Positions 18,072 through 64,000 are shown, counted from the first letter of the stretch. The stretch: DNA of 64,000 nucleotides from Elusimicrobia bacterium GWB2_63_16 (GCA_001799715.1 MGTZ01000020.1:11115-75114), one strand, 5' to 3'. A program made the numbers and translations. Notes: a model not told the origin generated them from the letters alone.

Positions 18072-18074
18072 TTT

Positions 18075-42409: not shown

Positions 42410-45400
42410 ATGAAGAAACTCGCGGTATTCCTGGCTTTTTTTGCTTTTTTCAAGGGGGGGGCGCTGGCCTTGGTCCCCTCGAATGTCCATTTTGATTACA
42501 ATACCTCCGATTCGGTCAGCGTTTCCTGGGATCCTTACGCCGGCCCCGGGTATTGGGCCGTCCTAAGCGACTACGAAGACTTCTCTACGTGGATCTCGAG
42601 CGCCCCGCTAGTTACCTCGGACGTAACGCGCCTCTACACGGGCCTGAAGGCCAACACCACCTACCATTTCAAGATAAAATTCTCCGACCAGGACGACAGC
42701 CAGTATTCCGCGCCCATTTCCACGGCGATACCCGCCGTACCGCCCTCCCAGGTCTCTTTCCCGGAAGTCTACTATTCCAGCGTCAGCGCCCAGTGGAGCA
42801 CCCTCGAGAATTCGCCGTCCTCAGAGTACCAGGCCGAAGCCGCCATGGACCCGGCTTTCACGCTGAACGTCTCCTTCTCCAGCGGCGCCGTCTCCGGCGC
42901 GGTGTTAGGCGGATTTACCCCTGATACGACGGTATACCTGCACGTACGGACTTTCGGCCTGACGGGAGCGGACAGTCCGTTCTCGGCGGCGCCGTCCACC
43001 GTGACGCTGGCCTATCCGCCGGGCAGCGAGGCTTATGCCCTGGTCTCCTCCACCGGCCTGTCCGTCTTCTGGGACGGCAACGGCAACCCCGGCTGGACCA
43101 AATATGAACTGACGGTTTCCACCGAGGAAGGCTTCGCCACGGTCAACTATTCCACCGCCCTGCCCGTCAATTATTACGAGGCGGCCGGCCTGCTGCCCAA
43201 CACCACCTACTATTTCAAGGCCCTGGCCGTGAACGGTTCCGGCATACGCACCGGGTATACCGTCTTCGGGGCCACGATGACCTATGCCGCCGCCCCCGGC
43301 GCTACCGCGCCCGCTCTGGACGCCGTCACCGCCACCTCGGCGGACGCGCACTGGCTGGGCGGCGACAACCCCGGCTTCACGGAATATTACGTGCAGGCCA
43401 GCACGGCCGCCGATTTCACCGGCCTGGATTACGGCCCCGGCACCTGGCTGGCGGGGGCCTACCGCAGCGTTACCGGGCTGGAGTCCGGCCTGACCTACCA
43501 TTTCCGCGTGCGGGCCCGCGACGCCCTGGGGCGCCCCAGCCCCTGGCTGGAGCTGGGCAGCGCGGTCACGCCGGCCGGGGCCGACACTACCCCGCCCTCG
43601 GTGACCGACCTGCAGGGCGGCGACGACGTGTGGCGCGGCGCCGCGGGCGGTTACTACATGGTGCATTTCTCCGACCTGGGCGCCGGACTGGACCGTTTCC
43701 AGGTGAGGGTCGCCACCGGCCCGGCCGGCAGCGGCACCGTGGTCTACGACTGGACCGACGCGGTCACCGGGATAAACGCCGCCGTTTACGACCAGGACTG
43801 GCCGCTGCCGGCGGCCGTCTTCGGGGCTATAGCCGAGAACGTGACTTCTTACGTTTCCGTCAGGGTCTACGACCTGGCCTCTCCGGCCAACTTTACCGTC
43901 AAGGAGGACGCCTTCTACGTTCTGCGCGACACCACCCCGCCGACCATAACCAATGCCGCGGTTTCACCCGCGGGCTGGCTGGCGGCCGATCCGGGGGCGG
44001 TCTTCGACGTGGATTTCGCCGACTCGCTGGCCGGCCTGGCCGCGGCCAGCTACAGCGCCGGTTCCGTCCCGGGCCTCGCCGGGGGGGACATACTGGGCTG
44101 GACCGCCGTGCCCGGCTTCGCTGCGGGCCCCGCCCATACCGCGCTCTGGGGCGTGGACTTCGGCGCGCTGCGCGACGGCGGCACAAACTATATCAGCGTG
44201 CGGGCAGTGGACGCGGCCGGCAACGCCAGCGTTCTGGCCGACGTGTTCAGGATACTCAAGAATACCGTGGGCCCGGCCGTCAGCATCGCGGCCCCTGCCT
44301 CCGCCTACGTGTCTACGGTGACGCTGGTAACCGGAGTAGCGGCCCCCATGACCGAGACAGATCCAGTGGCCGGCGTGCAGGTGTCGCTGCAGGAACTCTC
44401 CAGCCCCAACTCCTACTATTTCGACGGGGCGGCCTTCTCCTCCGCCTCGCCGGTCTGGCTGGCCGCCGCCGGCACGCTCTCCTGGTCCTACGACGCCTCC
44501 ACCGCGCCCTTCGCCGCCGGCGTGCAGTACCGGGCCGCGGCCCGCGCCAGCGATACCGACGGCCTGCTGACCGCGCCGCCCTACCCCAATGTCTCTTTCC
44601 GCCTGGACCAGGTGAACCCGACGGTCTACGTCTCCACCCCGCTCGCCGATTCCTCCGTCTACTCTCTGGATGCCGTAGAAGGCACCGCGGCCGACGCCGG
44701 CGGAGCCGGCCTGGGGGCGGTGGAGATCTACGTCAGCCGGGCTCTGGACGGGAAGTGGTGGAACTTCGTCGCCGGCTCCTGGGGCGACGTGGCCGTGGCC
44801 AGCGCCACGCCCGCCGCCGCCTCCTGGTCCTATACCCCGGCGGCCGGCCTGCGCGGCGCGCTGGCCCACGACCAGCAGTATTTCATAGCGGCCGTGGCCA
44901 GGGACGCCGCCGCGCCCGCCAACACTTCGGGTCTCGGCCTGGCCGGTTCCACCATAACCTGGAAGGACACGCTGGCCCCGGAGACCGTGACGGCCTTCGC
45001 GCCGTCCACGGGTTCCGCGCCGGGCCGGGTGGACCTGCGCTGGACCTTCGCCGGCGACGACGGCGGCGCGTTGGCGCTGACCTACGGGCGTTTCGCCGTG
45101 CAGTACTCCACCTACGCCGGGGCCGTGTTCAGCACCCAGACGGCCCAGGTGATGATCTCCACCGCCATGGTCCCGGCCGGGGCCCAGCTCTCCTACACGG
45201 TGGCCGGCCTGGCACCCGAGACCACCTACTATCTGCGCCTGTGGGTGCAGGACGACGCCGAGTTCTGGTCGGCCCCGTCGCCGCTGGCCTCTACCCTCTC
45301 CGGCGACCGCCTCAATGACACCATCTCCGGCTCCGTGCGCACCCCAGCGGGCGCCGGCGTCACCGGCGTTATGGTGGACGCCATCACCAACCTGGGCGCC

Positions 45401-46156
45401 GTGGCGGCCTCCGCCTACACGCTCGACGACGGGCTGGGCTCCTTCTCGCTGACGCCGCTGCCCGACGGCATCTACCGCGTTCGCGCCACCTGGCTGCAGG
45501 ACGGCTTCTCCAACTCCATCGCCAAGGACCAGATCCCGATGGGCTACGCGGACACCAATTTCCTGCTCTCGCTGGACTACGAGCTGGCCAGCGTCTCCGG
45601 CTCGCTGCCGGCCGCCGCGCCTTCCGGCCTGCGGCCGTCCGCGGCGGGGGGACAGGCGCAGTTGTGGCGCGGGGCCAGCCTGCTGGCCACCGCGGCCGCC
45701 GACGCTTCCGGGCGGTTTTTTATAGGCAATCTCATCCCCGGGCCGTACACCCTGCGCGTCAGCGCCGACGGCGCGGCCTGGAAAACTCTGGAGATCTCCC
45801 TGGCGCCCGGCCAGGAACTGCGCCTGCAGCCGCTGGGCGCCCTGGCGGACAAGGCCGGCACCTATGTCTATCCGAACCCGTCCTCGTCGCACGTCGTCTT
45901 CCGCGTGGCCACGGCCATCTCTCCGGTCAGGTTGAAGCTCTCCATCTTCGCGCTCGACGGTACGCTGGTGAAGGCCACGGAGTACGGCGAAGCCGGCTGG
46001 ACCTACACGGACGCCGCCACCGACGTCTACGAGTACCGCTGGGATTTCTCCGGCAGCCGGCCGGCCAGCGGCGTCTATTTCTGCACGGTGAAGCTGAAGG
46101 ACGAGCTCGGCGGCGGCGCCGAGACCCTGACCAGGAAATTCGCGGTCATAAGGTGA
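42410..46156 (+). CDS. Large secreted FN3/Ig-repeat protein with T9SS-type-A-like C-terminal domain
   Basis: Signal peptide; four GL.(P/A)NTTY.F-type FN3 units; DTTPP Ig-like units; carboxypeptidase-regulatory-like domains; TYVYPNP..IFALDGTLVK..W..PASGVYF..TRKFAVIR. Confidence 0.8.
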   Translation: MKKLAVFLAFFAFFKGGALALVPSNVHFDYNTSDSVSVSWDPYAGPGYWAVLSDYEDFSTWISSAPLVTSDVTRLYTGLKANTTYHFKIKFSDQDDSQYSAPISTAIPAVPPSQVSFPEVYYSSVSAQWSTLENSPSSEYQAEAAMDPAFTLNVSFSSGAVSGAVLGGFTPDTTVYLHVRTFGLTGADSPFSAAPSTVTLAYPPGSEAYALVSSTGLSVFWDGNGNPGWTKYELTVSTEEGFATVNYSTALPVNYYEAAGLLPNTTYYFKALAVNGSGIRTGYTVFGATMTYAAAPGATAPALDAVTATSADAHWLGGDNPGFTEYYVQASTAADFTGLDYGPGTWLAGAYRSVTGLESGLTYHFRVRARDALGRPSPWLELGSAVTPAGADTTPPSVTDLQGGDDVWRGAAGGYYMVHFSDLGAGLDRFQVRVATGPAGSGTVVYDWTDAVTGINAAVYDQDWPLPAAVFGAIAENVTSYVSVRVYDLASPANFTVKEDAFYVLRDTTPPTITNAAVSPAGWLAADPGAVFDVDFADSLAGLAAASYSAGSVPGLAGGDILGWTAVPGFAAGPAHTALWGVDFGALRDGGTNYISVRAVDAAGNASVLADVFRILKNTVGPAVSIAAPASAYVSTVTLVTGVAAPMTETDPVAGVQVSLQELSSPNSYYFDGAAFSSASPVWLAAAGTLSWSYDASTAPFAAGVQYRAAARASDTDGLLTAPPYPNVSFRLDQVNPTVYVSTPLADSSVYSLDAVEGTAADAGGAGLGAVEIYVSRALDGKWWNFVAGSWGDVAVASATPAAASWSYTPAAGLRGALAHDQQYFIAAVARDAAAPANTSGLGLAGSTITWKDTLAPETVTAFAPSTGSAPGRVDLRWTFAGDDGGALALTYGRFAVQYSTYAGAVFSTQTAQVMISTAMVPAGAQLSYTVAGLAPETTYYLRLWVQDDAEFWSAPSPLASTLSGDRLNDTISGSVRTPAGAGVTGVMVDAITNLGAVAASAYTLDDGLGSFSLTPLPDGIYRVRATWLQDGFSNSIAKDQIPMGYADTNFLLSLDYELASVSGSLPAAAPSGLRPSAAGGQAQLWRGASLLATAAADASGRFFIGNLIPGPYTLRVSADGAAWKTLEISLAPGQELRLQPLGALADKAGTYVYPNPSSSHVVFRVATAISPVRLKLSIFALDGTLVKATEYGEAGWTYTDAATDVYEYRWDFSGSRPASGVYFCTVKLKDELGGGAETLTRKFAVIR

Positions 46157-46163
46157 GAACGCT

Positions 46164-47903
46164 ATGAAGACAAGACTGGCCCTGATCTGCTGCCTGCTGC
46201 TGCCCGCGGCCTCCCGCGCGGCCAACATAACCGGCACCGGCGCCTCGGTGCACGACTCCGCCGGCGCGGCGCGCAGCACCTTCTCCAACTCCGAGACCAT
46301 CACGCTGCGCCAGAGCGTGAACATCGCCGAGAACAGCCCTACGAGCGACAGCGTGGATTTCACCTTCGAGATCCTAAACGCCGCCGGCGCCGCGGTATTT
46401 ACCCACGCCGGCAACTCCGCGCCCGGCACGCAGGGCGGGGCGCAGACTCAGCTGGCGGGTATCTCGATCAACTCCTTCTACTCTTCCCCGGGCAACTATA
46501 CCTTCCGGGCCAAGGCCACGCTGGACGCCGAGACCGTAACGCAGACGGCCGCTTTCCTGATCTCCAGCCCCAACATCACGCTGATCTACCCGCCCAACGG
46601 CGCGCGCGGCCTGTCCGACAACCCGCTCACCTTCCGCTGGACGGCCAGCGGGGCCAGCCGCTACCGCGTAACCGTGGCCGACAACGCCAGCCTCTACAAC
46701 GAGCTGCACTCGGCGGTGAACGCCGGCGAGAGCTATTATTCCTATCCCGCGGATCCCTCGGAGCCCAGGGAACGGCTCGTGCCCGAGCAGGTCTACTACT
46801 GGAAGGTGGAGGGCCTGGACGCCAGCAACAACAAGATCTCGGAGAGCAACGTCTATACTTTCTCGCTCAAGGGGCAGGCTTCCTCCACCACCCGCAACGT
46901 GGCCGTCACCCTGCTGGAGGTGACCACCCCGGCGCTGGATTTCGAGAAGCCGATCAATTTTAAGGCGGTACTCTACAACAGCGGCTCGGCTACCGAGTCC
47001 AATATCTCGGTGAAGATGTCCCTGGGCGGCCTGTCGGCCCAGGATTCGCCCAAACCGGTGATGACCATAGGCCCCGGCGAGCAGGTGGCGCTGACCTTCA
47101 CCGCCTTCATGCCGCCCGGCCAGGAGCAGGGTCTGGCCGCGGCCTGCGCGGACCTGTTCGACGACAACATGCCGGACAACTGCAAGACCAGATTGATCGG
47201 CAAGGACGCCGGCACCACTACTGCCGCGGGGGCCGGCCGCAAGCTGACCTACGACGAGATGTTCCAGGCCATCCTGCAGCGGCTCGGGCCCGAAGCGGCC
47301 AAGGCCCTGGAGGGGTACACTTTCGAGAGCCTCTCCTGCGCCAACTGCTCACAGGACGAGCTGGCGCTCATCATCGCCGCGCTGATAAGCGGCGAGGCGC
47401 AGCTCATAGGAGCCTCCGTCACCGAGACCGGCGGCGCCGAAACCACCCTGGGCGCCAACACCTCCGCCGCGGCGGACGCCGGTTCGGACTCCGCGGGCGA
47501 GGAGGCCGTGCCCGAGGAGACCTCGCTGGACCTGTCCCCGCTGAAGAACGACATCCCCGGAGAATGGAGCGGGTACACCGAGGCGCGGGGCAAGGAAGCC
47601 TCGACTATAGTGATACGGAGCAAGAAGGAATGGCGCAAGCTGTGGCAGACGCTGTCCAACGAGGAGGAGCCGGACGTGGACTTCGGCGATTCCATGGTGA
47701 TAGGAGTCATCTCCGGCGCGCTGGACCGGGCGGCCGCGGTACGCCTGCTGGGCAGCCGCAAAACGGACGACGGGATGGCCTTCGATTATTACCAGATAGA
47801 GACCCCGCGCGGAGCCGAGGCTTCCAAGGCGGCCTATATTTTCCGTCTCTACCCGCGCTCGGACGACAAGGTTTCCTTCTCGCGGGTGGACGTCCGCAAG
47901 TGA
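46164..47903 (+). CDS. Secreted Ig/FN3 + CARDB-like + PrcB-C-like protein
   Basis: LIYPPNG..TFRW..YYWKV; LYNSGSA..IGPGE..DNC (CARDB-like); VIRSKKEWRKLW..PDVDF..MVIGV (PrcB C-terminal-like). Confidence 0.6.
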   Translation: MKTRLALICCLLLPAASRAANITGTGASVHDSAGAARSTFSNSETITLRQSVNIAENSPTSDSVDFTFEILNAAGAAVFTHAGNSAPGTQGGAQTQLAGISINSFYSSPGNYTFRAKATLDAETVTQTAAFLISSPNITLIYPPNGARGLSDNPLTFRWTASGASRYRVTVADNASLYNELHSAVNAGESYYSYPADPSEPRERLVPEQVYYWKVEGLDASNNKISESNVYTFSLKGQASSTTRNVAVTLLEVTTPALDFEKPINFKAVLYNSGSATESNISVKMSLGGLSAQDSPKPVMTIGPGEQVALTFTAFMPPGQEQGLAAACADLFDDNMPDNCKTRLIGKDAGTTTAAGAGRKLTYDEMFQAILQRLGPEAAKALEGYTFESLSCANCSQDELALIIAALISGEAQLIGASVTETGGAETTLGANTSAAADAGSDSAGEEAVPEETSLDLSPLKNDIPGEWSGYTEARGKEASTIVIRSKKEWRKLWQTLSNEEEPDVDFGDSMVIGVISGALDRAAAVRLLGSRKTDDGMAFDYYQIETPRGAEASKAAYIFRLYPRSDDKVSFSRVDVRK

Positions 47904-47946
47904 CCGGAGTTCAGGATAGATCTTAAGCTAACTTAACGGAGGAGTC

Positions 47947-48675
47947 ATGACGAAAACAATGAAGATGGTAGCGGCCTTCGCCGCGGCGGGGGCGCTGGCG
48001 GCCTTCGCGCAGCCCGCCCTTTGCGCGCCCCGCGTGGCCGCGGTGGCGGTATTCATAACGGGCGACGTGCAGGTTAAGCGCACCGGTGAGTCGGCCTTCT
48101 CTGAACTGAAGGTCAACGACATGCTGTACGCCGGCGACAACATCAAGACCGCGGCCGCCAGCCGCGCCGGACTGGTCACCAAGGCCGGCGCCGAGGTGCG
48201 CCTCAACGAGAACTCCAGCTTCGAGATCTCGTCCCAGGGAAAGCTGCGCGACATGCTGAACCTGTCCGTGGGCCAGCTCTGGACCCGGATGCTGCACAAG
48301 ATGGCCAAGATCAACGTGCGCACCCCGTCGGCCGTCTGCGCCGTGCGCGGCACCGAGGCCGACATCGAGCAGCGCAGCCTGCTGACGGTGAAAGTCTACG
48401 AGGGTCATGTGGACGTGCAGAACTCGCTGGGCAAGCAGTCCCTGCGGGCCGGCCAGATGACCACGGTGTCCGGCGCAAACGCCGCGCCCGAGGCCGCCAA
48501 GAAGATGTCCGGCCAGGACGCCGGCAAGTGGCAGGAAGAGATCAAGGTGAGCGACTACAAAAAATTCATCAGCCTGCTCGAGGAGAGCGCCGCCGGCGGC
48601 AAAGACCTCAAGACGTCCGTCAAGATGCCGGACGGCTCGGTGAAGCAGATAGAAGGTTCGCTGAAGAAGAAGTAA
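47947..48675 (+). CDS. Secreted FecR-domain protein
   Basis: GDVQVKR, GDNIKT, VRLNENS, VRTPSAVCAVRGT, VKVYEGHV, LRAGQ; cleavable signal peptide. Confidence 0.85.
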   Translation: MTKTMKMVAAFAAAGALAAFAQPALCAPRVAAVAVFITGDVQVKRTGESAFSELKVNDMLYAGDNIKTAAASRAGLVTKAGAEVRLNENSSFEISSQGKLRDMLNLSVGQLWTRMLHKMAKINVRTPSAVCAVRGTEADIEQRSLLTVKVYEGHVDVQNSLGKQSLRAGQMTTVSGANAAPEAAKKMSGQDAGKWQEEIKVSDYKKFISLLEESAAGGKDLKTSVKMPDGSVKQIEGSLKKK

Positions 48676-48704
48676 GCCGGCCACGCCCGGCGGAGGAACT
48701 GTTT

Positions 48705-49631: not shown

Positions 49632-49725
49632 CGGGGTGCCAGGGTTGAAATAAGCGCGGGGCCCGTCGGGGGGCGCCGCGGATATTTGAACCTTTGCATT
49701 GCGTGATATTCACGGAGGCAGTCTT

Positions 49726-55700: not shown

Positions 55701-58290
55701 TGTCGCCGCCTCATCGTACACTGTGCATATCGGCACTTCGGCCTCCGTCTACCACCTGGTGGTCACTACCGCCGGCTGGGTGGGCCTTAACACGCAGCGG
55801 CCCCAGGCCCCGCTGCACCTGACCGCGGCCACCAAGGACGAGGGCATAGTTGTCGAGCACAACAGCAATACTGCCGAAGGCTCCTACCTCGCCCTGCTCA
55901 AGGCGCGCGGCACGGCGCAGTCGCAGTCCCTGGTAGCCGAGGGCGACAATCTGGGCGTGCTGGCTTTCGGCGGCTATAACGGCGCCTCCGGCGACCCGTT
56001 CCCGACGGCGGCCGCGATAATCGGCCGCGTGGACGGCGCTCCTACCCTGAGCCCGGCCCTCGATATGCCCGGCCGGCTGGAGTTCATGACCGCCGCGGAC
56101 GGCACTGCTGAAACCGTGACGCGCATGGTAATACGCGGCGACGGCGGGGTCGGTATCGCTACCGGCACCCCGCAGGCTATGCTGGACATACTCTCCACCT
56201 CCACTGTCGCCCAGATCTGGCGCGACGCAACAGGCGTGGTGCGCGCCTCAATGACCGCGGACGGCACGCTCTACGCTGCGGTGGGCTCTGCGGTGCAGAA
56301 GAGCGGGGACAATATGACCGGTCCCCTGACCATAACCCCGGACCCCGCGGTCTATATCTACGACCTTATGACCAACGGCATCCAGATATCCACGGCCGGG
56401 TCCATAGTTACGGTAGGCGTCGGCAACGGCTCCATGGGCGCCGGTCAGCGCGGCATGGGCGTGGTAGACCTGCAGACGGCCAGAGCGACCATAAGCCAGG
56501 TGGCGCTGGGGGACTTTTCCACGCTTAGCGGCGGCGCCTACAACACCGCCTTCGGTTCCGGCACGGTCATGGCCGGCGGCCTTTATAACATAGCCGCGGG
56601 CACGCTGGCCGTGATCTCCGGCGGTCAGAATAACTACGCGGACGCCCGCTTCAGCGCCGTGGGCGGCGGCAAGGGCAATACGGCCAACGCGGACTACGCC
56701 GGAGTCTTCTCCGGGTCCGGGAACCTTGTGGCCGGCGCAGGGGGATTCATAGGCGGCGGCCAGGGGAACACTGTGGAGTTCAATTACGGCGCGATAGCCG
56801 GCGGCATGAACAACCTGGTGGACGTGGCGGCCGATTACGGCTTCGTGGGCGGCGGCTACGGCAATAAAGCCGCCAACACGCACGCCGCGGTGGCCGGGGG
56901 CTGGACTAACGCCGCCAACGGCATGGAAGCCTTCGTGGGCGCGGGCTACATGAACGCCGCCGACGGCGAGAAATCGGTGGTGGGCGGCGGCAATAATAAT
57001 ACGGTAACTGCTTTCGGTCTCTATTCGGCGGTAGTAGGCGGCAGCAGCAATACCGTGGCCGGCGAGGCCAGCTTCGTGGGCGGCGGCAACACCAATGTCG
57101 TCTCAGGCAAAAACTCCGTGGTGCCGGGCGGCCTTCGCAATACCGTGACCGCGATCCAGTCCGGCATAATGAGCGGCAATGATAACGTCGTTACCGGGAC
57201 CGCTTCAGTAGTCTCGGGAGGCGATCATAACGTTGTAAGCGGACAGGATTCGGTGATAGCCGGCGGCGCCAACAACAGCGCCAAAGGCTGGTGGGCCACC
57301 ATCCCCGGCGGCTACCAGAACTCCGCCGTGGGGAACTACTCGTTCGCGGCCGGCTACAAGTCCAGTTCCACGGCGGCGGGCGCGTTCACCTGGGCCGATA
57401 GCCAGGGAACAGAGGTTCTCAACGGGGTGCCCGACCAGGTCCGTTTCAAGGCTGCCGGCGGTTTCATGGTCTCCACCTCAGCCGTCTATTCCACTCCCGG
57501 CTTGTACGTCAACGAGTTCAATGCGGTGGGCATCGGCACCGCCACCACCCGCAGCGACCTGACGCTCTTTGTCAACAGGGGCGCCAGCCAGAATACGTTC
57601 CTGCTGGGCAGCGAAAGCAAAGGCCTGCGCCTGCGCGATACCGGCAGCCTCATAGATATAGAATCGGTGGGAAGCGATATTATCTTCAACGCCAGCGGGC
57701 AGGGCGCCTATTTCTACCAGGGTAAGGTAGGCTTCGGTACCACCGCCAGCGGCGTGGTCGGAACAAAAGTGGCCATAGTGCAGCCTTTCCTCACCACCGA
57801 CCCGTACGTGCTGAAGGTGGGCACCGGCACGAACCCGACCAGCCTCACCGTATCCACCTCGGGCGTGATAGGGATGCCCATGCAGTCCATGGCCAGGGCA
57901 TATGGCGCCGCGAGCGTCGGAGTGCCCTCCTCGACTTTGTGGCAGCCCGTCAGCGTCGACGCGAAGTTTGAGGACACCCAGGGTGAATATGATACCACCA
58001 CTCAAAAGTTTACCGCCACGACGGGCGGCCTCTACCTGGTGGCGGGCCATGTATGGATAGCCGCCAACGCGACGGGGTCCCGCGGTATAGGCGTCGGCAT
58101 CAACGGATCGGCTACTCCGCTGAAGCAGGCGACCGATGTCAGGGCGGCAGGCGTTTCTACCAGTGACCTCACTCTCAGTTCCGTAATAAGGCTGCTGCCA
58201 GGAGAGTTCCTCCGGCTTATGGTCTACCAGGATTCCGGTTCCACGCTGAACGTCGGCAACGCCACGTTTGACGTGGTGAAATTGAATTAA
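49726..58290 (+). CDS. Giant secreted phage-tail-fibre-like (probably trimeric) adhesin with C-terminal C1q-like domain
   Basis: Signal peptide; TYQGRL...NGLF...LTPRERLTAVPYA N-domain; repeated KxGDTMTG and VGIGT..P.A.LD shaft motifs; Gly/Asn beta-solenoid repeats; C-terminal YDTTTQKFTA..GLYLV..SSVIRL.PGE.L.L.VYQ. Confidence 0.8.
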   Translation: MKKLILAIAIFLGASPLWAEVMTYQGRLKESDIPVSANRVFLFEFCDAETSGICHTTPSGYQSFAAQNGLFKSTFTIPAADLSQGQWYLQVSVGPDIPGIVVLTPRERLTAVPYAVFASSAGYASYAAGAVQKTGDTMSGQLTLAGSTLTVTGSEFSVGGSTFTVKAGYVGIGVDTPSVPLTLGYNNFAGWEYSSSNHSVAHKIGKTSDGAGPLQFVTTFNPGESGEVFRFSSMYRGNLLSMLAGGGVGIGTDMPSATLDIISTGTAADVYAQIWRDSTGLVVGSMSATGLMQAVKFVGDGSGLSGVTGATDDTKVLKTGDTMTGPLAVIVDTSVDSFDIQTNGINISTSGAITTVGLGLGTASPDTRGQGAADLQTQRTAADQIASGQFSSISGGALNTAAGEYSVVSGGYKNTAAGQVSNVSGGQFNTVSGINSSVSGGLFNVVAGSNSAVSGGAYNTVTGTSAVIAGGEYNVASGKHSAVGGGFLNTASSLYSAVGAGTGNTASNTYSYVGGGSANLASGYVAVVAGGAANRADGYRAAVGGGYDNRASGQDSVVPGGYNNTAEGNYSFAAGAKSSSTAQGAFTWQDSGGTTINLVNGVTDRTVFKSRGGFLVTGSTNTSMTGTQDRGVIMTGNGLLGIAIDSPQAALDVVSTGTASDVYAQIWRDSTGLVVGSVSAAGFMKAVKFVGDGSGLTGVTGASGTDTSKVLKAGDTMTGDLTMALGSTITVTGSSFSVGGATLAVRDGFVGIGTASPAAPLTIAGVVGNEIQFPSAGGDIQIFGTGSPDQFLIGGANTFEVNIAGTYPMRVSNTGVAVDTVTANGTISAARYYISGSPALVFSGLGNMLAGKSAGAVTTSGDANTMAGAYAGGSNTTGGSNAMVGAYSGYSNISGSYNALLGKDAGYGSSGFSFSKAAMVGYQAGYALMQGDNNVFLGHRAGYSVTVGSSNIVIGADITTPETDSDYTLNIGGVLHGDLAAGTIGISTRAPQAALDIVSTGTLPTQMAQIWRDSTGLIVGSMSVTGAMQAVKFVGNGAGLTGVTALDDTKLALTGGTLGGVLNMNGNFLSGVSTITMLSGSIAIVPPGTGGSNIGYGISIGSNSYNNYTSGIGLGHSARDNYTGGVGIGDSAFDNYSYGVGVGNNATSNNTSGVGIGNGASGNNNFGVGIGAQASANPYYAVGVGAYSQNNKGYGAALGAYSYASSSATALGAQARANAELSLALGYGTVNNSTGTASFGAYGVNAAYYQVNGGTVLNVLPGIGSLAVGVAAAASDTGAYNLFVGSAAGHGHSSGSNNVMLGYGAGFQNTTGAGNVFIGAAAANTNINGDQNIVIGYNQGTSAQGASNELNIGGLIFGQIGAKTVGISTRAPQAALDVVSTGTGAGFYAQIWRDSTGLVVSSVSSQGIYYGNGSGLTSLPVPSGVVQKAGDSMTGALYLDGTGGSNVYLKITQTSGGNLISAGLTGGATALLYADGSSIGLFSEQVSHRVGIGAGMTEALTVTQNRVGVNNTSPFYTLDVNGPGRFADQIVAGGSVTVAGSAFSVGGSTFVVNAGRVGINWTTPEAALQVSGGAKFLSSAGTSYILTAGSSARPDMFFVSSGGIVGAGDFTDIFVDTYAVVSLAPVLKSGADGAVGLTVYARTDKAATVTATGPDQVLAGGNFEAVAGGDDSVTLLAAVRTQLRRESVGVGVVSKAYGLLVDDIYTDSGAGVITDTYGIYIGDQTSAFGGTQTNSPYAIYSQDPGAKVFFAGNLGLGMSNPGARLDIAAIADDPATMGQIWRNSLGNIVSSMSATGVMMSAKFVGDGSGLTNVPGVQKTGDTMTGQLTIFGSSLTIRPAASDAYSLYVSSADGSTPALTVKPGGELYTAGRAGIGSAAPAEALDISGRVLISTNAGNVSTDGLFSNGSGGIVFQSAGTTYLKASYGGGYVGIGPSANVYTDTMSPKVQARGSMSVGSGYNTSHPPAESLVVQGRLGIGTPAPDAALSVVQADVAASSYTVHIGTSASVYHLVVTTAGWVGLNTQRPQAPLHLTAATKDEGIVVEHNSNTAEGSYLALLKARGTAQSQSLVAEGDNLGVLAFGGYNGASGDPFPTAAAIIGRVDGAPTLSPALDMPGRLEFMTAADGTAETVTRMVIRGDGGVGIATGTPQAMLDILSTSTVAQIWRDATGVVRASMTADGTLYAAVGSAVQKSGDNMTGPLTITPDPAVYIYDLMTNGIQISTAGSIVTVGVGNGSMGAGQRGMGVVDLQTARATISQVALGDFSTLSGGAYNTAFGSGTVMAGGLYNIAAGTLAVISGGQNNYADARFSAVGGGKGNTANADYAGVFSGSGNLVAGAGGFIGGGQGNTVEFNYGAIAGGMNNLVDVAADYGFVGGGYGNKAANTHAAVAGGWTNAANGMEAFVGAGYMNAADGEKSVVGGGNNNTVTAFGLYSAVVGGSSNTVAGEASFVGGGNTNVVSGKNSVVPGGLRNTVTAIQSGIMSGNDNVVTGTASVVSGGDHNVVSGQDSVIAGGANNSAKGWWATIPGGYQNSAVGNYSFAAGYKSSSTAAGAFTWADSQGTEVLNGVPDQVRFKAAGGFMVSTSAVYSTPGLYVNEFNAVGIGTATTRSDLTLFVNRGASQNTFLLGSESKGLRLRDTGSLIDIESVGSDIIFNASGQGAYFYQGKVGFGTTASGVVGTKVAIVQPFLTTDPYVLKVGTGTNPTSLTVSTSGVIGMPMQSMARAYGAASVGVPSSTLWQPVSVDAKFEDTQGEYDTTTQKFTATTGGLYLVAGHVWIAANATGSRGIGVGINGSATPLKQATDVRAAGVSTSDLTLSSVIRLLPGEFLRLMVYQDSGSTLNVGNATFDVVKLN

Positions 58291-58331
58291 CGCGCACTGG
58301 AGGAGGCTTAGCGCTTAGCAGAAACTGACTG

Positions 58332-61300
58332 ATGGGAAATCGCATATTCCCGGCCGCCTTGTTGGCATGCCTGTTTACCGTACAGGCGGCGGCCCAAAAA
58401 ACAGCGGGAGACATAACCGTGCTCGGTGACGCGGCGGACTACTCGTCCGCCAGCGCGGGGCAGTCGCATGCCGACGGCAAGGTAGTGCAGGGGGGGCTGG
58501 CGGGCGCGGCCCACGGCTCGCAGGAGTTCCACAGCGCGGGCACCGACATCGTGCTGGAGTCTGGTTTCTACTCGCGGCTCGTCTCGTCGGCAGCGGTCTT
58601 CGGCTACGCCGCGCAGGGGATCAGCAGTTATACGCTGGCCTGGACCGACCAGGGCTGGCCGTATCCCGCCAATCCCCCGGGCACCACTTACGACCTCTTC
58701 CTCTCCACCTGGGCGGAGGCGGACCCGTACATGGTCTCCTATTCCACCGACGAACACGGCTACCCGGTGGAGGGTCTGGCCCCCAACACCAGCTACTACA
58801 ACTTCCTGTTCGCCAACTATATGGAGGGCGACTATTCAGCCTATTCCTCTTCTACCGCGGTGACGATGGCGGCCGTGCCTTCCACCGGGGCATTTACGCT
58901 GACCGACGCTGGTCACAGTACCCTGGGGCTCACCTTCGCCTCCTCCGGCAACCCGCCGCCGTTCCTTGAGGCCGCCTGGCTGACGGCCCTGCCGCCCGCC
59001 GGCACGCTGCCGGCGCCGCGCACCGGCGCCGCGGCGGTGGTCTACGGTTCGCACGTGTACTTGAGCGGCGGGTTCGACGGGGTCTATTATTCAAGCGCCA
59101 TCTTCCGCGCCGAGACCTATGCTGACGGCACGCTGGGCCCCTGGGGCCTTGCCGGTTTCATGCCGGCCGCCCTCTACGGCCACCAGGCGGTGGCCGCGCG
59201 CGGCCGCCTTTACATCCTGGGCGGTTCCGGCTTCGGCGCGGCGCACGACGAGGTCTGGTCGGCCGATATCTCCTCGGCGGGCGCGCTCGGCTCCTGGGAG
59301 GCAGAGCCTAAACTGAACGCCCCCGTTTATTTCCACGCCGCGGCGCTGGCGGGGGGCAGGATATACGTGGCGGGCGGCTACATGCCCGGTTCCGGCGTCT
59401 TGAACAGTCTCCGCTACGCGGCTATCGGGCCCGACGGAACGTTGTCGGACTGGCAGGCGGCGGGCAGCGTTCCGGCCCCGCGCTACGGGCATTCCCTGAC
59501 GCTCCTGGAAGACCGCCTGCTGCTGGCCGGCGGCAACGACGGTTCTTCGGCCAGAGCCGAAACCTGGACCTATTCCCCGGCCGGGGACGCCTGGACGCCC
59601 TATACGCAGCTGCCCTCCCCGCGCTTCGGCCATGCCGCCGCCGCCGTTGAGAACAGGCTTTATGTTTTCGGCGGCAATAACGGTTACGCCTCGCAGTCCC
59701 ACGTGTTCCACAGCAGCGTGCCGGCCGCGGGAACCGCGCCCTGGGCGGCGGGGGAACCGATACCGGCCGCGCGCCAGTTCTCCGCCGTGGCCCTGACCGG
59801 GGGCCGCCTCCACCTCATAGGCGGAGCGTCGGGCTCGGTCCCCTCGGATTCCGTCTGCTCGGCGGTGGTACTGGGCGCGGAGTACCAGGCCGAAGTGGCC
59901 GAGAACGCCGGCTTTATAGGCGCCAAATCCTCGAGCTGGTCCGCCAGCCCGGCCTTCGCCTTTACCGAACTGAAGCCCGGCACGCAGTATTACTACCGGG
60001 CGCGGGCCCGCAACTGGTCCGGGGTCGCCACCGTTTTTTCCCTGAGCGGGTCCACCTTCACCTACGCCGCTGTGCCCGGTACCGCCCCCTGGACCAATGT
60101 CTGGGTCTCTTCCGCGACGCTGAACTGGACGGCCAACGGCAACCCGGCGGGCAGCGACTACGCCGTGGTCTACTCCTCCTACCCGGACTACTCCTACCCG
60201 CAGGGCATGAGCGCGGCGGGCGCTCTTTCTGCGGGCCTGACCGGCCTGCAGCAGAGCACCACCTATTACGCCAAGGTCCGCCTGCAGGACGGGGACCTGC
60301 TGTCGCGCTACGCCGAACTGCCGCCCGTGCGGACCGGCTTCGACCCGGCCCTGGACGTCAGCAGCCCCACTATAGACAGCAACCAGGGGGATATCCCCGG
60401 CTGGCAATCCACCAACACCTTCCTCTGCGACGTGGACTTCGCCGATGTCGGCGCGGCCGGCTTGGACCGGATAGAACTGCGCATTTCGACCCAGGCCGCG
60501 GACCCGGCCAGCTTCGTCGGTGAGTGGACGCCGGCAATCACGGCCATCAATCAGGATGCCTACACCGCTGACTGGCGCCTGACCCAGCAGGTCTGGGAGG
60601 CCATGCTCGACGGCGCCTCCAACTATGTTTCCGTCCGCGCCTATGACCGCTCCGGCAACCGCGGCGAGGAACTGGAACTCTTCATGGTGCGCAAGGACAC
60701 TACGCCCCCGGCGATAGCGGTCGGTTACGCGGCCCCTGCGGCCTGGCAGATAGATTATCCCGGAGACGTGACGCCCCTGGACTTCGGCGACCCGCTGTCG
60801 GGCCTGGCCCGGGTGCAGTATAGCGTCAGCGCCTCCAAGAACTTCGCGGACGGCGCCGTGATACCGTGGACGGATATCGCCGGGCTGACCCCCGGCGCCA
60901 CCTGGTACCGCCCCACGCTGACTTACAGCTTCAACGCGCTGGCCAACGCGACCTCCAATTACTTCAGCTTCAGGGCGGTGGACGTGGCCGGCTCCACCCG
61001 CACGCTCACCGACGCCTTCGGCATAGCCAAGAACGTCAGCGGCCCCATAGTGGATATCTCCACGCCCACGGCCCTGTTCCTGTCCACGTTCACGCGGGTT
61101 TCCGGCGACACGGCCGAGACCAACTTCCACCAGGTGATGGGCACCGAGGTCTCCATCCGCGACCTTACGAGCCTGCTTTACTACAACGCCGGAGCTTTCC
61201 TCTCCGGCTCGCACGCCTGGCAGGACGCGCAGGATTTCCCCAGCAGCTATACCATAGTCTTCCAGAATCTGCCGCTGATCAGCGGCCGCCAGTACCAGGT

Positions 61301-62945
61301 GGTGGCCCGCTCTTCCGACGCGGCAGGGGACTACTCGCAGCTGTTCGCCACCCACACCTTCACTTTCGACGCGGACGCCCCGGCCGCCGCGGTGCTGTAC
61401 CCCGCCGACGGCTCCACCGCGGCCTCCCTGGCCGCCGTCAGCGGCACGGCCGCCGACCCGCAGTCCGGCATAAGCGCCGTGGACGTGGCGCTGCGCCGCC
61501 TCTCCGACGGGAAATGGTGGAAGAACTCCGTTTCCGAATGGGCCGACGCCCCCGAGCCGCTGCAGGCCGGTACCACGCCGTACTGGACCTGGAATTTCCA
61601 GCCCTACCTGCGCGACGCGCTGGTGCACGGCGCTTCCTATTACGTCACCGTGCGCGCCTCCGACCTGGCCGTGCCGGTGAATACCGGCGCGTTCCACCTG
61701 TCCGGCTCCACGTTCACCTACGCCGACGCCACGCCGCCGCCGCCCACGGCCGGCCTGGCCGCGGTACCCGGGGCTTTCAGCGGCGCCGTCAACCTCTCCT
61801 GGCCCTCCGCCGGTGATAACGCGGCCGGCGGCTACCTGCTGGCGGGCCTCTACAAGATCGCCTATTCCACCTATACCGGCGCGCCCGCCTCCACGGCTAC
61901 GGCCCAGGTAAGTATTGCCACGGCTTCCGTTACCGCCGGCAGTACCCGGTACTGGACCCTGACCGGCCTGGACCCGGCCGCGGCCTACTATTTCACGCTC
62001 TGGACCGCCGACGACGCGCAGAACTGGTCCGCGGTCTCCAACGAGGCCTCGGCCCTGAGCGGGGCCCCCGACAGCGGCGCCCTGACCGGCCGCGTCACGG
62101 ACGCCTCCGCCCAGCCCCTGACCGGCGTGCTCGTGGAGGCCCGCTCCCCCGCAGGGGCGCTGGAGGGCAGCGACTACACGGACGCCTTCGGCGCCTATTC
62201 CATCCCCGGCGTGGACTCGCTCTACGTCAATATCCGGGCGGTCTGGACCGCGCAGGACATAGAGAGCTCGGTCACCAAGGACAATGTGCCCAACGGCTCC
62301 TCGAACGTCAACTTCAGCCTGAGCGTCTCCTACCAGCTGGCCAGCATCCTCGGCGTGATCCCGGCGAACTATCTGCCGGCCTCCTCCGGCGCTAGGCCCG
62401 CCTCCGCGCGCTATACCACGCGTGAGACCCGGACCTCTTCCGGCGCCGAACCCTTCGTGGAACTGTACAGCCGCGGCCGCCGCATAGGCGCGGCTTACAC
62501 CGACGCCGGCGGCTCGTTCGAGATCCCGAACCTGCTGCCCGGCACCTACTCGCTGCGCGTCTTCAACGGTTCGGAGTTCAGCCGGCTGGAGACGGTGAAG
62601 CTCGGGCCCGGCGAACGGCTGGTCTTCTCGCCGCAGTGGGACCTGCTCAACAAGGCCGGCGTCTTCGCCTATCCCAATCCGGCCAGCACCGAGGTGCACT
62701 TCCATTTCTCGCCGTCCGCGGTCTCCTTCGAGGCCGAGGTGCAGATCTTCGACATCTCCGGGCGCCTGGTCAGGACGCTCGACGCCCACGCGCCGGACCT
62801 GGCGCAGCTCGGCGGCAGACGCCTTACCTGGGACCTGGTCCGCGACGGCGCGGCGCCGGGCGTGTATCTCTATGTGCTGCGTGTTAAGGATGTTTCCACC
62901 GGACGAGCCGAGAAGGTGGTAAAGAAGTTCGCGGTGGTGAGGTAG
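58332..62945 (+). CDS. Secreted Kelch-propeller + FN3/Ig-repeat protein with T9SS-type-A-like C-terminal domain (paralogue of 42410)
   Basis: Six Kelch repeats (VYLSGG, LYILGG, IYVAGG, LLLAGG, LYVFGG, LHLIGG); FN3 units; VFAYPNP..IFDISGRLVR..W..APGVYLY..VVKKFAVVR. Confidence 0.82.
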   Translation: MGNRIFPAALLACLFTVQAAAQKTAGDITVLGDAADYSSASAGQSHADGKVVQGGLAGAAHGSQEFHSAGTDIVLESGFYSRLVSSAAVFGYAAQGISSYTLAWTDQGWPYPANPPGTTYDLFLSTWAEADPYMVSYSTDEHGYPVEGLAPNTSYYNFLFANYMEGDYSAYSSSTAVTMAAVPSTGAFTLTDAGHSTLGLTFASSGNPPPFLEAAWLTALPPAGTLPAPRTGAAAVVYGSHVYLSGGFDGVYYSSAIFRAETYADGTLGPWGLAGFMPAALYGHQAVAARGRLYILGGSGFGAAHDEVWSADISSAGALGSWEAEPKLNAPVYFHAAALAGGRIYVAGGYMPGSGVLNSLRYAAIGPDGTLSDWQAAGSVPAPRYGHSLTLLEDRLLLAGGNDGSSARAETWTYSPAGDAWTPYTQLPSPRFGHAAAAVENRLYVFGGNNGYASQSHVFHSSVPAAGTAPWAAGEPIPAARQFSAVALTGGRLHLIGGASGSVPSDSVCSAVVLGAEYQAEVAENAGFIGAKSSSWSASPAFAFTELKPGTQYYYRARARNWSGVATVFSLSGSTFTYAAVPGTAPWTNVWVSSATLNWTANGNPAGSDYAVVYSSYPDYSYPQGMSAAGALSAGLTGLQQSTTYYAKVRLQDGDLLSRYAELPPVRTGFDPALDVSSPTIDSNQGDIPGWQSTNTFLCDVDFADVGAAGLDRIELRISTQAADPASFVGEWTPAITAINQDAYTADWRLTQQVWEAMLDGASNYVSVRAYDRSGNRGEELELFMVRKDTTPPAIAVGYAAPAAWQIDYPGDVTPLDFGDPLSGLARVQYSVSASKNFADGAVIPWTDIAGLTPGATWYRPTLTYSFNALANATSNYFSFRAVDVAGSTRTLTDAFGIAKNVSGPIVDISTPTALFLSTFTRVSGDTAETNFHQVMGTEVSIRDLTSLLYYNAGAFLSGSHAWQDAQDFPSSYTIVFQNLPLISGRQYQVVARSSDAAGDYSQLFATHTFTFDADAPAAAVLYPADGSTAASLAAVSGTAADPQSGISAVDVALRRLSDGKWWKNSVSEWADAPEPLQAGTTPYWTWNFQPYLRDALVHGASYYVTVRASDLAVPVNTGAFHLSGSTFTYADATPPPPTAGLAAVPGAFSGAVNLSWPSAGDNAAGGYLLAGLYKIAYSTYTGAPASTATAQVSIATASVTAGSTRYWTLTGLDPAAAYYFTLWTADDAQNWSAVSNEASALSGAPDSGALTGRVTDASAQPLTGVLVEARSPAGALEGSDYTDAFGAYSIPGVDSLYVNIRAVWTAQDIESSVTKDNVPNGSSNVNFSLSVSYQLASILGVIPANYLPASSGARPASARYTTRETRTSSGAEPFVELYSRGRRIGAAYTDAGGSFEIPNLLPGTYSLRVFNGSEFSRLETVKLGPGERLVFSPQWDLLNKAGVFAYPNPASTEVHFHFSPSAVSFEAEVQIFDISGRLVRTLDAHAPDLAQLGGRRLTWDLVRDGAAPGVYLYVLRVKDVSTGRAEKVVKKFAVVR

Positions 62946-62990
62946 GCCGCCGCCGGCCGCGGGTAAATTAATATAATTTAAGGCTCAATA

Positions 62991-64000
62991 ATGCGTAAAC
63001 TTGCCGTACTCATACTTTTCTCCCTCGTCTGCCAGGCCCGGCCGCTGCTGGCGCAGGACGCCGCCAGCCTGCAGTTCACGGTGGCCGCGCCCGACCCGGT
63101 GATGGCCGGCGAGGAAGTGACGCTGCAGACGCTCGCCGTCAACAGCGGCGCCTCCGTGTGGGAGCGCGGGAGCTACTACTGGATAGGCGAGGTGTACGCC
63201 ATAGAGGGGGAGGGCCGCCGTTTCCTGACCCAGACGGCCAGCGTGTCGCCGGCCGAGGACGTGGCCCCCGGCGCGGCGCAGGGCGTGCAGCTGCTCTTCC
63301 GCGTGCCCGACAATCTGGCCGGCCGCCGCCTGCTCTACCGCGTGTTCCTCATCAAGGACGGCCGCCGCATCCTCGAAACGGATTTTAAAGGCTTCCAGGT
63401 CATAGAGAAGGAATTGCGCTACACTATCCCCGAGGATTTCAAGATCGGCGGCGACGTCTCCTTCACCTACAAGAACAACAGCCGCGACGGCTGGGACCAC
63501 CACCAGGGCATCACGTCGGCCAACCTCGTGGGCAAGATCCGCCAGTCCTCTTTCCTGTTCAATACCTACGTGGTGCACACCTACCACCGGCCGATCACGC
63601 CCACTATCGTGCTGCTCAACTACTACGCCCCGTGGGGCACCCTGAGCATCGGCGACATCTCGCCGACCCTGACGCCGCTGTCGATGGACGGGCAGGGGAT
63701 GCGCGGCGTCTCGTTCGAGCGGGCCCGGGGGAGATACTCGCTGCTGGCCCTGGTGGGACGCATCGTGGCGCCGGAGGAGCCGGGCCCCAACAGCGGCGGC
63801 CGCTTCGCGCGCTACACCAGCGGCCTGAAGGCAGGCTGGCAGTTCCGGCCCAACCTCAAGGTCTCGGTGGACGCGGTGATGAGCCGCGACGATATGCATT
63901 CCATCAACATCACCACCGCTGCGCTGACCATAAAGCCGCAGCAGACCGTGGTCTACGGCCTCAACGCCGAGTGGAAGTTCCTGAAAGCTTTCTCCCTGAA
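62991..64000 (+). CDS. Secreted protein with N-terminal Ig-like domain followed by outer-membrane beta-barrel strands; truncated at window end
   Basis: Open frame from ATG 62991 to the window end (absent from ORF track as it has no stop): MRKLAVLILFSLVCQARPLLAQ, VNSGASVW..VAPG, KIGGDVSFTY, LSIGDISPTLTPLSMDGQGMRGVSF, YGLNAEWKF; TATAAT at 62972-62977. Confidence 0.75.
   Translation, partial: MRKLAVLILFSLVCQARPLLAQDAASLQFTVAAPDPVMAGEEVTLQTLAVNSGASVWERGSYYWIGEVYAIEGEGRRFLTQTASVSPAEDVAPGAAQGVQLLFRVPDNLAGRRLLYRVFLIKDGRRILETDFKGFQVIEKELRYTIPEDFKIGGDVSFTYKNNSRDGWDHHQGITSANLVGKIRQSSFLFNTYVVHTYHRPITPTIVLLNYYAPWGTLSIGDISPTLTPLSMDGQGMRGVSFERARGRYSLLALVGRIVAPEEPGPNSGGRFARYTSGLKAGWQFRPNLKVSVDAVMSRDDMHSINITTAALTIKPQQTVVYGLNAEWKFLKAFSL

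Follow-up and report, generated by a model that had tools for sequence, protein, structure and literature searches.

In the passages of the literature drawn on here, the system of type IX secretion (T9SS) is described as confined to Bacteroidota, and perhaps to other phyla of the Fibrobacterota-Chlorobiota-Bacteroidota (FCB) group, and as dependent on the GldLM/PorLM motor (PMC11285876, PMC10994853). One of these papers, published in 2024, states in the passage concerned that T9SS genes are absent from non-FCB phyla (PMC11285876). In Flavobacterium johnsoniae the substrate exits SprA bound to a carrier, and in Bacteroidota the release from the translocon is said, in the same source, to be driven by the proton-motive force (PMC10994853). 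Passages on retained and clustered components describe PorZ as held on PorQ, and type B cargo genes as clustered with the genes of their cognate PorP/SprF proteins (PMC10202324, PMC9143113). Here we analysed 64,000 nucleotides of DNA from the groundwater organism Elusimicrobia bacterium GWB2_63_16 (GCA_001799715.1, MGTZ01000020.1:11115-75114), a stretch that we call the window, and in particular a cluster of seven genes, g1 to g7, that occupies its last third (Table 1). The results point, with reasonable though not high probability, to a T9SS-like display system in Elusimicrobiota, outside the FCB group, which has one carrier per cargo and lacks the known motor, ring and sortase.

In the source genome (2.87 Mb in 62 contigs, 91% complete, about 65% G+C), nearly every gene encoding a T9SS-type C-terminal domain (CTD) has its own PorV/PorQ-like gene directly downstream. 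There were 30 PorV_fam matches, of which 18 individually exceeded the cut-off, and 26 matches to the CTD model TIGR04183 at E<=0.01; for 20 of the latter 26, a PorV_fam match on the same strand began no more than 500 bp downstream. With hidden Markov models (HMMs) built from the genome's own copies, we recovered 29 PorV-like open reading frames (ORFs) and 27 CTD-ending ORFs, and a PorV-like ORF lay directly after 21 of the 27, at a distance of -3 to 367 nt. Chance pairing was expected to yield 0.31 such cases (about 2525 crudely defined genes; binomial P 5e-36), and the maximum reached in 10000 label shuffles was 4. The cargo ORFs that precede a PorV-like gene include some of 12,759, 6,022, 3,033 and 2,631 aa, with a small CTD ORF intervening in the case of the 6,022-aa one. 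The window itself holds a second cargo-carrier pair, formed by a metalloprotease gene and a barrel gene. The genes g1 and g6 are among the six unpaired exceptions: g2 and g3 separate g1 from g4, and g7 comes after g6. Relatives share the expansion: each of 18 genomes from the genus had 19-43 PorV_fam matches, and two from a sister family had 25-26. Ten small genomes (1.4-1.7 Mb) of a third family had only 1-4 each. An earlier interpretation of the window, made from the DNA alone and hereafter called the sequence-only reading, had suggested that the cluster might be a divergent or minimal T9SS-like system. The locus is, however, not a self-contained secretion system: it is one of 21 places with a CTD and a PorV-type gene, and the only translocon candidate is encoded on a different contig. 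What the locus contains is a single cargo-carrier unit joined to a barrel module specific to the phylum and to a gene for a fibre. The 12,759-aa frame lies on contig C36 (58258-98388); it ends in a CTD, and the next gene is PorV-like.

Another part of the genome encodes a divergent homologue of SprA, which nearly all members of the phylum possess. A 1776-aa ORF on contig C8 matched the SprA model TIGR04189 with 127.3 bits (E 3.6e-37) in three collinear stretches, Bacteroidota controls scoring above 2700 bits. When a profile of 24 Elusimicrobial relatives of this protein (alignment A2) was searched against the sequences of the PDB, the sole match was F. johnsoniae SprA (E 6e-17). Of the 121 Elusimicrobiota genomes sampled, 114 gave a match to the SprA-like ORF and 117 a match to PorV_fam. 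The four genomes without PorV_fam, all of one genus and of 1.0-1.4 Mb, were also without a SprA-like match (4/4).

Searches for the remaining T9SS components gave no such matches. The GldL model (TIGR03513) was over its cut-off in 0 of the 121 Elusimicrobiota genomes, 116 of which are at least 90% complete, and gave a single match of 24.7 bits; in the controls it was found in three genomes out of three, at 190-254 bits. GldM (TIGR03517) was not found in the source genome, and GldM_1st (PF12081) was found in 0 of 5 Elusimicrobiota genomes versus 5 of 5 controls. GldN was not detected in the source genome or in two relatives (G032 and G033), and it was present in all three Bacteroidota controls. 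In the same three Elusimicrobiota genomes no full-length PorU (NF033707) was found, only the CTD end of the model being matched (positions about 950 to 1095), and full-length matches of 1374-1397 bits were obtained in two Bacteroidota genomes. The best match to PorP/SprF (TIGR03519), in a search run without a positive control, was 20.6 bits in a PorV-like ORF on contig C28 (cut-off 90.55). The positive controls were Bacteroidota genomes found by sampling the phylum of a Chitinophagaceae metagenome-assembled genome (MAG; G031) that itself had no GldM match. The relative G032 is assembled to chromosome level, so that the missing components are not explained by gaps in the assembly. The sequence-only reading had noted that the window contains no porK/L/M/N, porU or gld genes; genome-wide, GldL, GldM, GldN and PorU, all searched with controls, were not found either, nor was GldK in a search that had none.

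The products of g1 and g6 are paralogous giant surface proteins ending in T9SS type-A-like CTDs. The C-terminal two thirds of g6 are 34-37% identical to g1 over about 1000 aa (phmmer E 5e-151), and both proteins share YPNP ... SGVY ... KFAV(I/V)R at the very C-terminus. Against TIGR04183 (cut-off 23), g6 scored 28.3 bits over residues 1447-1531, and g1 scored 19.9 bits in hmmscan, below the cut-off, and 23.4 bits in the genome search, above it. g1 was also matched by the CTD HMM built from the genome's own copies, and orthologues of it occur in 17 loci; a Pfam/NCBIfam scan further identified fn3 (75.5 bits) and CarboxypepD_reg in this protein. The barrel g4 belongs to the family NF033709, which it matched with 146.5 bits (cut-off 90) over model positions 2-326 of 326, and it matched F. 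johnsoniae PorV (6h3i_F) with an E value of 6.5e-5. Neither equivalog cut-off was reached, g4 scoring 98.7 bits on the PorQ model (cut-off 220) and 49.5 bits on the PorV model (cut-off 250). For both PorV/PorQ-family barrels of the window the PorQ score was the higher one (98.7 and 114.8 bits versus 49.5 and 34.7 bits).

We then consider the complex predicted for g4 in its mature form and the C-terminal 110 aa of g1, for which each chain was entered as a 17-row orthologue alignment (A4, A3). The ipSAE score was 0.93 in all three runs, and the best of three controls gave 0.00; the pass mark had been calibrated such that it was reached by 58 of 80 solved complexes and by 2 of 110 mismatched pairs. 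The runs agreed in at least 98% of contacts, with a partner pLDDT of 86-87. The predicted interface is made of the YVYPNP, SGVY and KFAVIR stretches and includes the Lys that is invariant in A3. In the relevant passage of their paper, Lauber and colleagues describe that Lys as the one conserved CTD residue contacting PorV (PMC10994853). The proposal that the C-termini are T9SS CTDs is supported by the TIGR04183 matches of g1 and g6 and by the predicted docking of the g1 CTD on g4, one of the complex predictions that the sequence-only reading had called for. On this model, g4 is probably the carrier and anchor for the g1 CTD, and perhaps also for that of g6.

The following mechanism can be proposed. 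The cargo would cross the inner membrane by Sec export, and the CTD of g1, probably that of g6 too, would be recognised by the cognate carrier g4 at the SprA-like translocon. The cargo-carrier pair would then leave the pore laterally, as a passage on F. johnsoniae describes (PMC10994853). As there is no PorU to cut the CTD, the cargo would remain uncut and non-covalently attached to the carrier barrel, which would act as its anchor, in the manner of PorZ-PorQ, PorU-PorV and type B cargo with PorP/SprF. Together with g2 and g3, g7 would provide a second, older platform for giants of the g1/g6 type, and the g5 fibre would be carried by that assembly.

Several observations weigh against a T9SS-like display system, some of them concerning the SprA-like protein. 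Its score is below the TIGR04189 cut-off (127 versus 200 bits), it is about 600 aa shorter than SprA, it has no Pfam SprA_N match at E<=0.01, and single-sequence phmmer found no SprA match. Its gene (C8:4671-10001) adjoins divergently oriented lptF and lptG. Given these neighbours, and given that it is near-universal even in genomes with 1-4 PorV-like genes, the protein could serve the envelope in some other core function. PorV_fam occurs without a SprA-like match in three genomes, and the four double-negative genomes, being of one genus, may reflect a single loss event. The docking carries a caveat of its own: PorV-CTD complexes have already been solved, so that the pass may reflect likeness to those structures and shows such likeness, not binding by the g4/g1 CTD pair. 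At the locus itself g4 does not directly follow a CTD gene, and the gene after g6 is g7, not a PorV-like one. Concerning the missing components, the TIGR models are narrow (of 26 genomes from the control phylum, GldM was matched in no more than 6), so very divergent motors could escape these searches, and the search for GldK, whose only match was one of 70 bits to the FGE-sulfatase part, in a 942-aa ORF (cut-off 350), had no positive control. Release from the translocon is driven by the proton-motive force in Bacteroidota (PMC10994853), and no energy source for it was found here; the roles of g2, g3, g5 and g7 are inferred.

These points bear most directly on an alternative in which the CTD and PorV/PorQ-like pairs anchor cargo without the SprA-like protein, the cargo using another route or the barrel and CTD assembling at the barrel assembly machinery (BAM), while the SprA-like protein serves a different core envelope function. 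Such an arrangement would agree with a gene that 114 of 121 genomes carry, irrespective of how many PorV-like genes they have, next to lptF/lptG, with a product below the family cut-off, as well as with the three genomes that have PorV_fam alone and with the failure of the GldL and GldM_1st searches to find a motor. We nevertheless regard it as unlikely. It leaves aside that the Elusimicrobial profile matches nothing in the PDB but SprA, and that the PorV-family barrels known so far act, according to a passage of PMC10994853, by docking on SprA. It also does not account for the joint distribution of the two families, as all 114 genomes with a SprA-like protein have PorV_fam and the four without PorV_fam lack both, or for the SprA homologue present in 14 of 14 genomes of other phyla that have CTD genes followed by PorV genes (see below).

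Table 1. Features of the window; positions are counted from its first nucleotide.
Feature	Position	Strand	Description	Basis
g1	42410..46156	+	1248-aa secreted surface protein: FN3 repeats, CarboxypepD_reg, T9SS type-A-like CTD	Pfam, NCBIfam
g1 CTD (last 110 aa)	45824..46153	+	motifs YVYPNP, SGVY, invariant K in RKFAVIR	17-row orthologue alignment A3
g2	46164..47903	+	579-aa secreted protein; single copy in genome	
g3	47947..48675	+	242-aa secreted stand-alone FecR-domain protein	PF04773
g4	48705..49631	+	308-aa PorV/PorQ-family outer-membrane barrel	NF033709, PDB match, complex model
g5	49726..58290	+	2854-aa secreted fibre: UspA1-head-like beta-roll, repeated modules, phage-fibre-like C-terminal tip	
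g6	58332..62945	+	1537-aa secreted protein: Kelch beta-propeller, FN3, CarboxypepD_reg, type A CTD	
g6 CTD (about residues 1447-1537)	62670..62942	+		TIGR04183 match, C-terminal sequence
g7	62991..64000 in window, on to window-equivalent 64904	+	637 aa; contig C20:74105-76018; ends YNYSF	
Second cargo-carrier pair	14712..19124	+	M6 metalloprotease with type A CTD, then PorQ-like barrel	
M6 metalloprotease of the pair	14712..18071	+	1119 aa	TIGR03296 220.9 bits, TIGR04183 24.0
PorQ-like barrel of the pair	18075..19124	+	349 aa; 3-nt gap from metalloprotease	NF033709 130.4 bits

The seven ORFs of the cluster are co-oriented, with gaps of 7, 43, 29, 94, 41 and 45 nt after start correction. Reading of the N-terminal sequences led us to move the starts of g4 and g5 from 48528 and 49699, in the raw ORFs, to 48705 (MKPGIILG...) and 49726 (MKKLILAIA...). 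The N-termini of all seven products, judged by eye, have the look of Sec-type signal peptides. The sequence-only reading was thus right about the common orientation with gaps below 100 nt (7-94 nt) and, as far as visual inspection of the N-termini goes, about signal peptides on all seven products. Its domain labels largely agreed with the family scans for g1, g3, g4 and g6, but the CARDB and PrcB labels given to g2 were matched only below threshold. No sigma-70-like site was found on the + strand upstream of g1 in a promoter/terminator scan, which gave no decisive signal otherwise.

Orthologues of g4 with 71-95% identity were found in Elusimicrobia/Elusimicrobiales MAGs in a scan of species-representative genomes, and wherever a source is named for a relative of g7 or of the SprA-like protein, it is again Elusimicrobia. 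The taxa of these relatives establish the host as a member of the Elusimicrobiota (Elusimicrobiales) and not of Bacteroidota or another FCB phylum, as had been suspected. To compare gene order, g1 to g7 were laid on 19 orthologous loci (L019-L037). The order g1-g2-g3-g4-g5-g6(-g7) was kept, as far as the flanks reach, in 16 of 16 loci with a g4 at 71% identity or more: g2-g3-g4 occurred in all of them, with g1 upstream and g5 downstream wherever the flank reaches, g6 followed g5 in all seven loci extending that far, and g7 followed g6 in the sole locus doing so. Three further loci, with a g4 at 53-54% identity, have the order g1-g2-(g3)-g4-g7, and a g5-like gene lies upstream of g1 in two of the three. 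Conservation of gene order in relatives, a check suggested at the outset, was hence found in all 19 orthologous loci fetched. The sequence-only reading had named three findings that would speak against it, namely an FCB host with a canonical T9SS elsewhere, C-termini that neither fold as CTDs nor dock on the barrels, and an unconserved gene order; none of the three was encountered.

DNA near-identical to positions 46164-49631 of the window was detected in groundwater, aquatic and sediment metagenome runs from about ten studies. In one sediment metatranscriptome run, the share of sampled words was 0.10, and short contigs, mostly 88-95% alike, covered 29 of 30 bins; single contigs of this library spanned each of the g1/g2, g3/g4 and g4/g5 junctions. 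As these contigs come from relatives and the library may contain DNA, they demonstrate neither transcription nor a single transcript. On balance we think that the cluster is operon-like and encodes seven Sec-exported envelope proteins within a T9SS-like system of surface display that is spread across the phylum as a whole.

The reading frame of g7 extends 904 nt beyond the end of the window. No Pfam or NCBIfam family and no PDB sequence match were found for its product. In the AlphaFold model (pLDDT 79.6), residues 25-138 form an Ig-like sandwich at the N-terminus and residues 150-636 about 26 barrel strands. The best match among solved folds was MtrB (6r2q_B; Foldseek TMq 0.53; VIA Z 21.3, root-mean-square deviation 4.3, 457 residues aligned), and the next were the usher pores FimD (Z 17.9) and PapC (Z 17.1). 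That g7 is a PorV paralogue was ruled out with the PorV-like HMM built from the genome's own copies; the large barrel named by the sequence-only reading is seen in the model. We collected 161 relatives of g7, none with a Pfam domain, whose given names are all Elusimicrobia/Elusimicrobiota or plain 'bacterium'. The family occurs in 23 of the 121 phylum genomes, from 13 families, usually as a single copy, as in the source genome; it was found in 0 of 37 and 0 of 34 genomes of two families composed mostly of small genomes.

Eight of 18 g7 neighbourhoods, from several families, show a CTD giant followed by g2, g3 and g7. One of these eight has a PorV-like gene before g7, and two (L106 and L107) have between g3 and g7 an ORF of about 385 aa that is not PorV-like and for which no NCBIfam family was found. 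Among the other neighbourhoods, one has g2 and g3 beside g7 in another order, one (L101) has a g5-like, a g6-like and the g7 gene in succession, and eight have no recognised neighbour. Within g7 loci, the PorV-like g4 was seen in this family only, and g5 and g6 were seen between g4 and g7 in this genus only. These patterns indicate that the old core consists of a CTD giant, g2, g3 and g7, from which we infer that g2, g3 and g7 form an older conserved module accompanying g1/g6-type CTD giants across the phylum. g7 is probably the outer-membrane platform of the CTD-giant assembly, and its barrel would enclose a partner protein or let one pass through.

The partners of g7 in this module are less readily classified. 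In g2, CARDB scored 17.1 bits (cut-off 22.7) and PrcB 22.1 bits (cut-off 125), both below threshold, and the ESM Atlas gave CARDB leads only, at 0.84. The model of g2 comprises three Ig-like domains, a helical or disordered linker and a C-terminal alpha/beta domain with a weak PrcB_C likeness; fold comparison gave no informative match, Foldseek returning only generic Ig, MG and FN3 chains with TMq of 0.22 or less. g3 contains a FecR domain, matched by PF04773 with 49.5 bits (cut-off 24) over profile positions 1-96 of 97. It has neither the anti-sigma N-terminal part nor a transmembrane helix, and has instead, judged by eye, a signal peptide. It shows a partial likeness to the Leptospira FecR-type proteins Lsa33 and LipL45. 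Proteins of the g3 type also resemble the LapA retention module weakly, at 22-25 bits (cut-off 50), which is a lead only for the idea of a plug in the barrel.

The fibre g5 matched a beta-roll family only in Pfam. Its residues 420-645 resemble the head of the trimeric adhesin UspA1 (3pr7, E 7.2e-24), and its C-terminal 199 aa match the phage virion-protein family phrog_13989 (E 4.6e-12); taken whole, g5 had no PHROG match. Neither a CTD nor a YadA-type C-terminal anchor was found in it (Pfam, E<=0.01). Because this anchor was not found, g5 was ruled out as a trimeric autotransporter adhesin, the shared part being the head-like beta-roll only. An N-terminal signal peptide is a feature that g5 shares with the Bdellovibrio MAT fibres. 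We take g5 for an adhesive fibre, probably trimeric, that lacks its own anchor; either the CTD proteins or g7 are likely to hold it. Three paralogues of g5 occur elsewhere in the genome. At C8:16090-24930, on the minus strand, a CTD protein gene (443 aa), a PorV-like gene, a 273-aa secreted ORF without family and a g5-like fibre gene (1844 aa) follow one another in this order; the N-terminus of this fibre is like that of g5, and the place represents a second case of a CTD-less fibre gene beside a cargo-carrier pair.

The sequence-only reading had suggested that the system might be dedicated to building a surface fibre. This received no support, since g5 has no CTD and the locus is one of a genome-wide set of cargo-carrier places. 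A related view holds that the locus exports or displays g5 itself, with g7 as an usher-like or two-partner-like pore and the CTD proteins as accessory tip or base. It could draw on a fibre that has a signal peptide and neither CTD nor anchor, on the resemblance of the g7 barrel to the translocation domains of FimD (Z 17.9) and PapC (Z 17.1), and on the g5-like genes beside CTD/PorV genes at two other places of the genome (C8 and C28) and before a g6-like gene and g7 in L101. We consider this view distinctly improbable: g7 accompanies the CTD giant, g2 and g3 in eight of 18 neighbourhoods without a recognised g5-like gene, it directly follows g4 in loci of the L034-L036 type, it is present once as against three further g5 paralogues, and family scans found no chaperone and no TpsB- or POTRA-like features in g7. 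An ordinary T9SS, with an FCB host or a canonical system elsewhere and plain cargo beside porV, is scarcely credible, for although the CTD and PorV family matches exceed curated cut-offs and parts could be unassembled in a genome that is 91% complete, the relatives' genomes are named Elusimicrobia, GldL is over its cut-off in none of 121 phylum genomes (116 of them at least 90% complete), and searches with positive controls detected no GldM_1st, GldN or PorU in a relative assembled to chromosome level.

The display system with SprA-like translocon and private carriers, which remains the preferred explanation, may not be restricted to Elusimicrobiota. We found 60 more distant PorV-family loci with an upstream ORF, and this ORF ended in a CTD in 27 of the 60. 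Fourteen of these 27 loci were tested (L042-L096, genomes G171-G184); they come from four Cloacimonadota, two Krumholzibacteriota, one Goldbacteria and seven unlabelled genomes. A SprA homologue was present in all 14 of these genomes, none named as Elusimicrobia, with CTD genes followed by PorV genes, over the cut-off in 11, and GldL was found in 0 of 14 and GldM_1st in 0 of 11 of them, all being MAGs without completeness estimate. Arrangements without the motor may thus be common beyond Bacteroidota. A different neighbour was seen in Zixibacteria, Ignavibacteria, Chlorobiaceae, Calditrichaceae and one MAG labelled Chitinophagaceae: there (L040, L051, L065, L071, L073-L075, L078, L085, L086, L092 and L098), the ORF upstream of the PorV-family gene is about 311-342 aa long, has no CTD and is not cargo.

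Full-text searches, which did not cover paper supplements, found no literature linking Elusimicrobia to type IX secretion or the T9SS, the matches examined having these terms in reference lists or in unrelated passages, and in the literature on PorV-like and PorQ-like homologues nothing on a one-carrier-per-cargo arrangement was found. Automatic database annotation probably names these proteins already.

A bolder interpretation, which we put forward as tentative and by no means the expected outcome, is that Elusimicrobiota and, to judge from the 14 genomes examined, Cloacimonadota, Krumholzibacteriota, Goldbacteria and other candidate phyla share a motor-less type IX form, in which a translocon of the SprA type is combined with PorV/PorQ-type barrels, each the private carrier and anchor of one CTD cargo, with no GldLM, PorKN or PorU. 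Such a form might represent either the ancestral T9SS core or a system with an undiscovered energy coupling. Under the same interpretation, g7, with its MtrB-like barrel of about 26 strands, would add a new class, the third, to the barrels that partner cargo, and would act together with FecR-like and Ig-repeat proteins to hold giant CTD adhesins and fibres on the cell surface. If the system works, the translocon-plus-carrier core of the T9SS is separable from its energy chain, and the purpose of the motor becomes a testable question: in a non-FCB phylum the translocon homologue, many carriers and CTD cargo are almost universal, yet no motor, ring or sortase is detectable. The rule of one carrier per cargo would moreover allow the surface proteome of a poorly known phylum to be predicted, including fibres, proteases and adhesins that reach 12,759 aa, and g7 represents a new phylum-specific barrel family with conserved partners.

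Three other genes of the window may be mentioned. An IS200-like Y1 transposase gene (PF01797, 59 bits) lies at its start (375-1091), a bacterial alpha-2-macroglobulin of 1974 aa with MG2, A2M and bMG10 domains is encoded at 6943-12867, and the minus strand encodes, at 24854-26452, a protein of 532 aa that has a VWA domain besides an N-terminal part resembling CsgG/LpoB.

Comparison with known systems places the individual parts of the locus as follows. g5 has in common with trimeric autotransporter adhesins the UspA1-type head beta-roll, but their YadA-type anchor was not found in it; its C-terminus shares a virion-protein-like tip with phage tail fibres, and there are no phage genes near it. 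The barrel of g7 has the fold of a wide, protein-holding barrel, like MtrB, the 26-strand sheath of MtrCAB, to which g7 adds an N-terminal Ig-like domain; by sequence g7 does not belong to the MtrB/porin-cytochrome barrel families, and no cytochrome family is represented among the seven products. Usher systems have a similar barrel fold, but their chaperones and pilins have no counterpart in the g7 locus. With the Bacteroidota T9SS, the Elusimicrobiota system shares the type-A-like CTD (YPNP, GxY, C-terminal Lys), the PorV/PorQ barrel, a SprA homologue (below the family cut-off) and a predicted CTD-barrel interface. It differs in that the GldL/M motor, the GldN ring and the PorU sortase of the Bacteroidota system were not found, in that the SprA-like protein has about 1776 aa as compared with about 2400 aa for SprA in Bacteroidota, and in that the host phylum lies outside the FCB group. 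In the attachment complex of Porphyromonas gingivalis, the PorZ-PorQ and PorU-PorV pairs provide a precedent for a CTD retained on a PorV/PorQ-type barrel as anchor, as would be the case for the Elusimicrobiota cargo; there, retention is limited to two machine components, whereas here it would be the general fate of cargo, without attachment to A-LPS (anionic lipopolysaccharide). In the type B pairs SprB-SprF and PG1035-PorP, as passages of two papers describe them, each cargo gene lies in a cluster with the gene of its barrel, for which a role as surface anchor is proposed (PMC10202324, PMC9143113), and the same holds here; type B systems combine a type B CTD with PorP/SprF, whereas the present one combines a type A-like CTD with a PorV/PorQ-like barrel. 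Finally, the Bacteroidota T9SS relies on one shared PorV, whereas the Elusimicrobiota source genome has one carrier gene per cargo gene, in 21 pairs.

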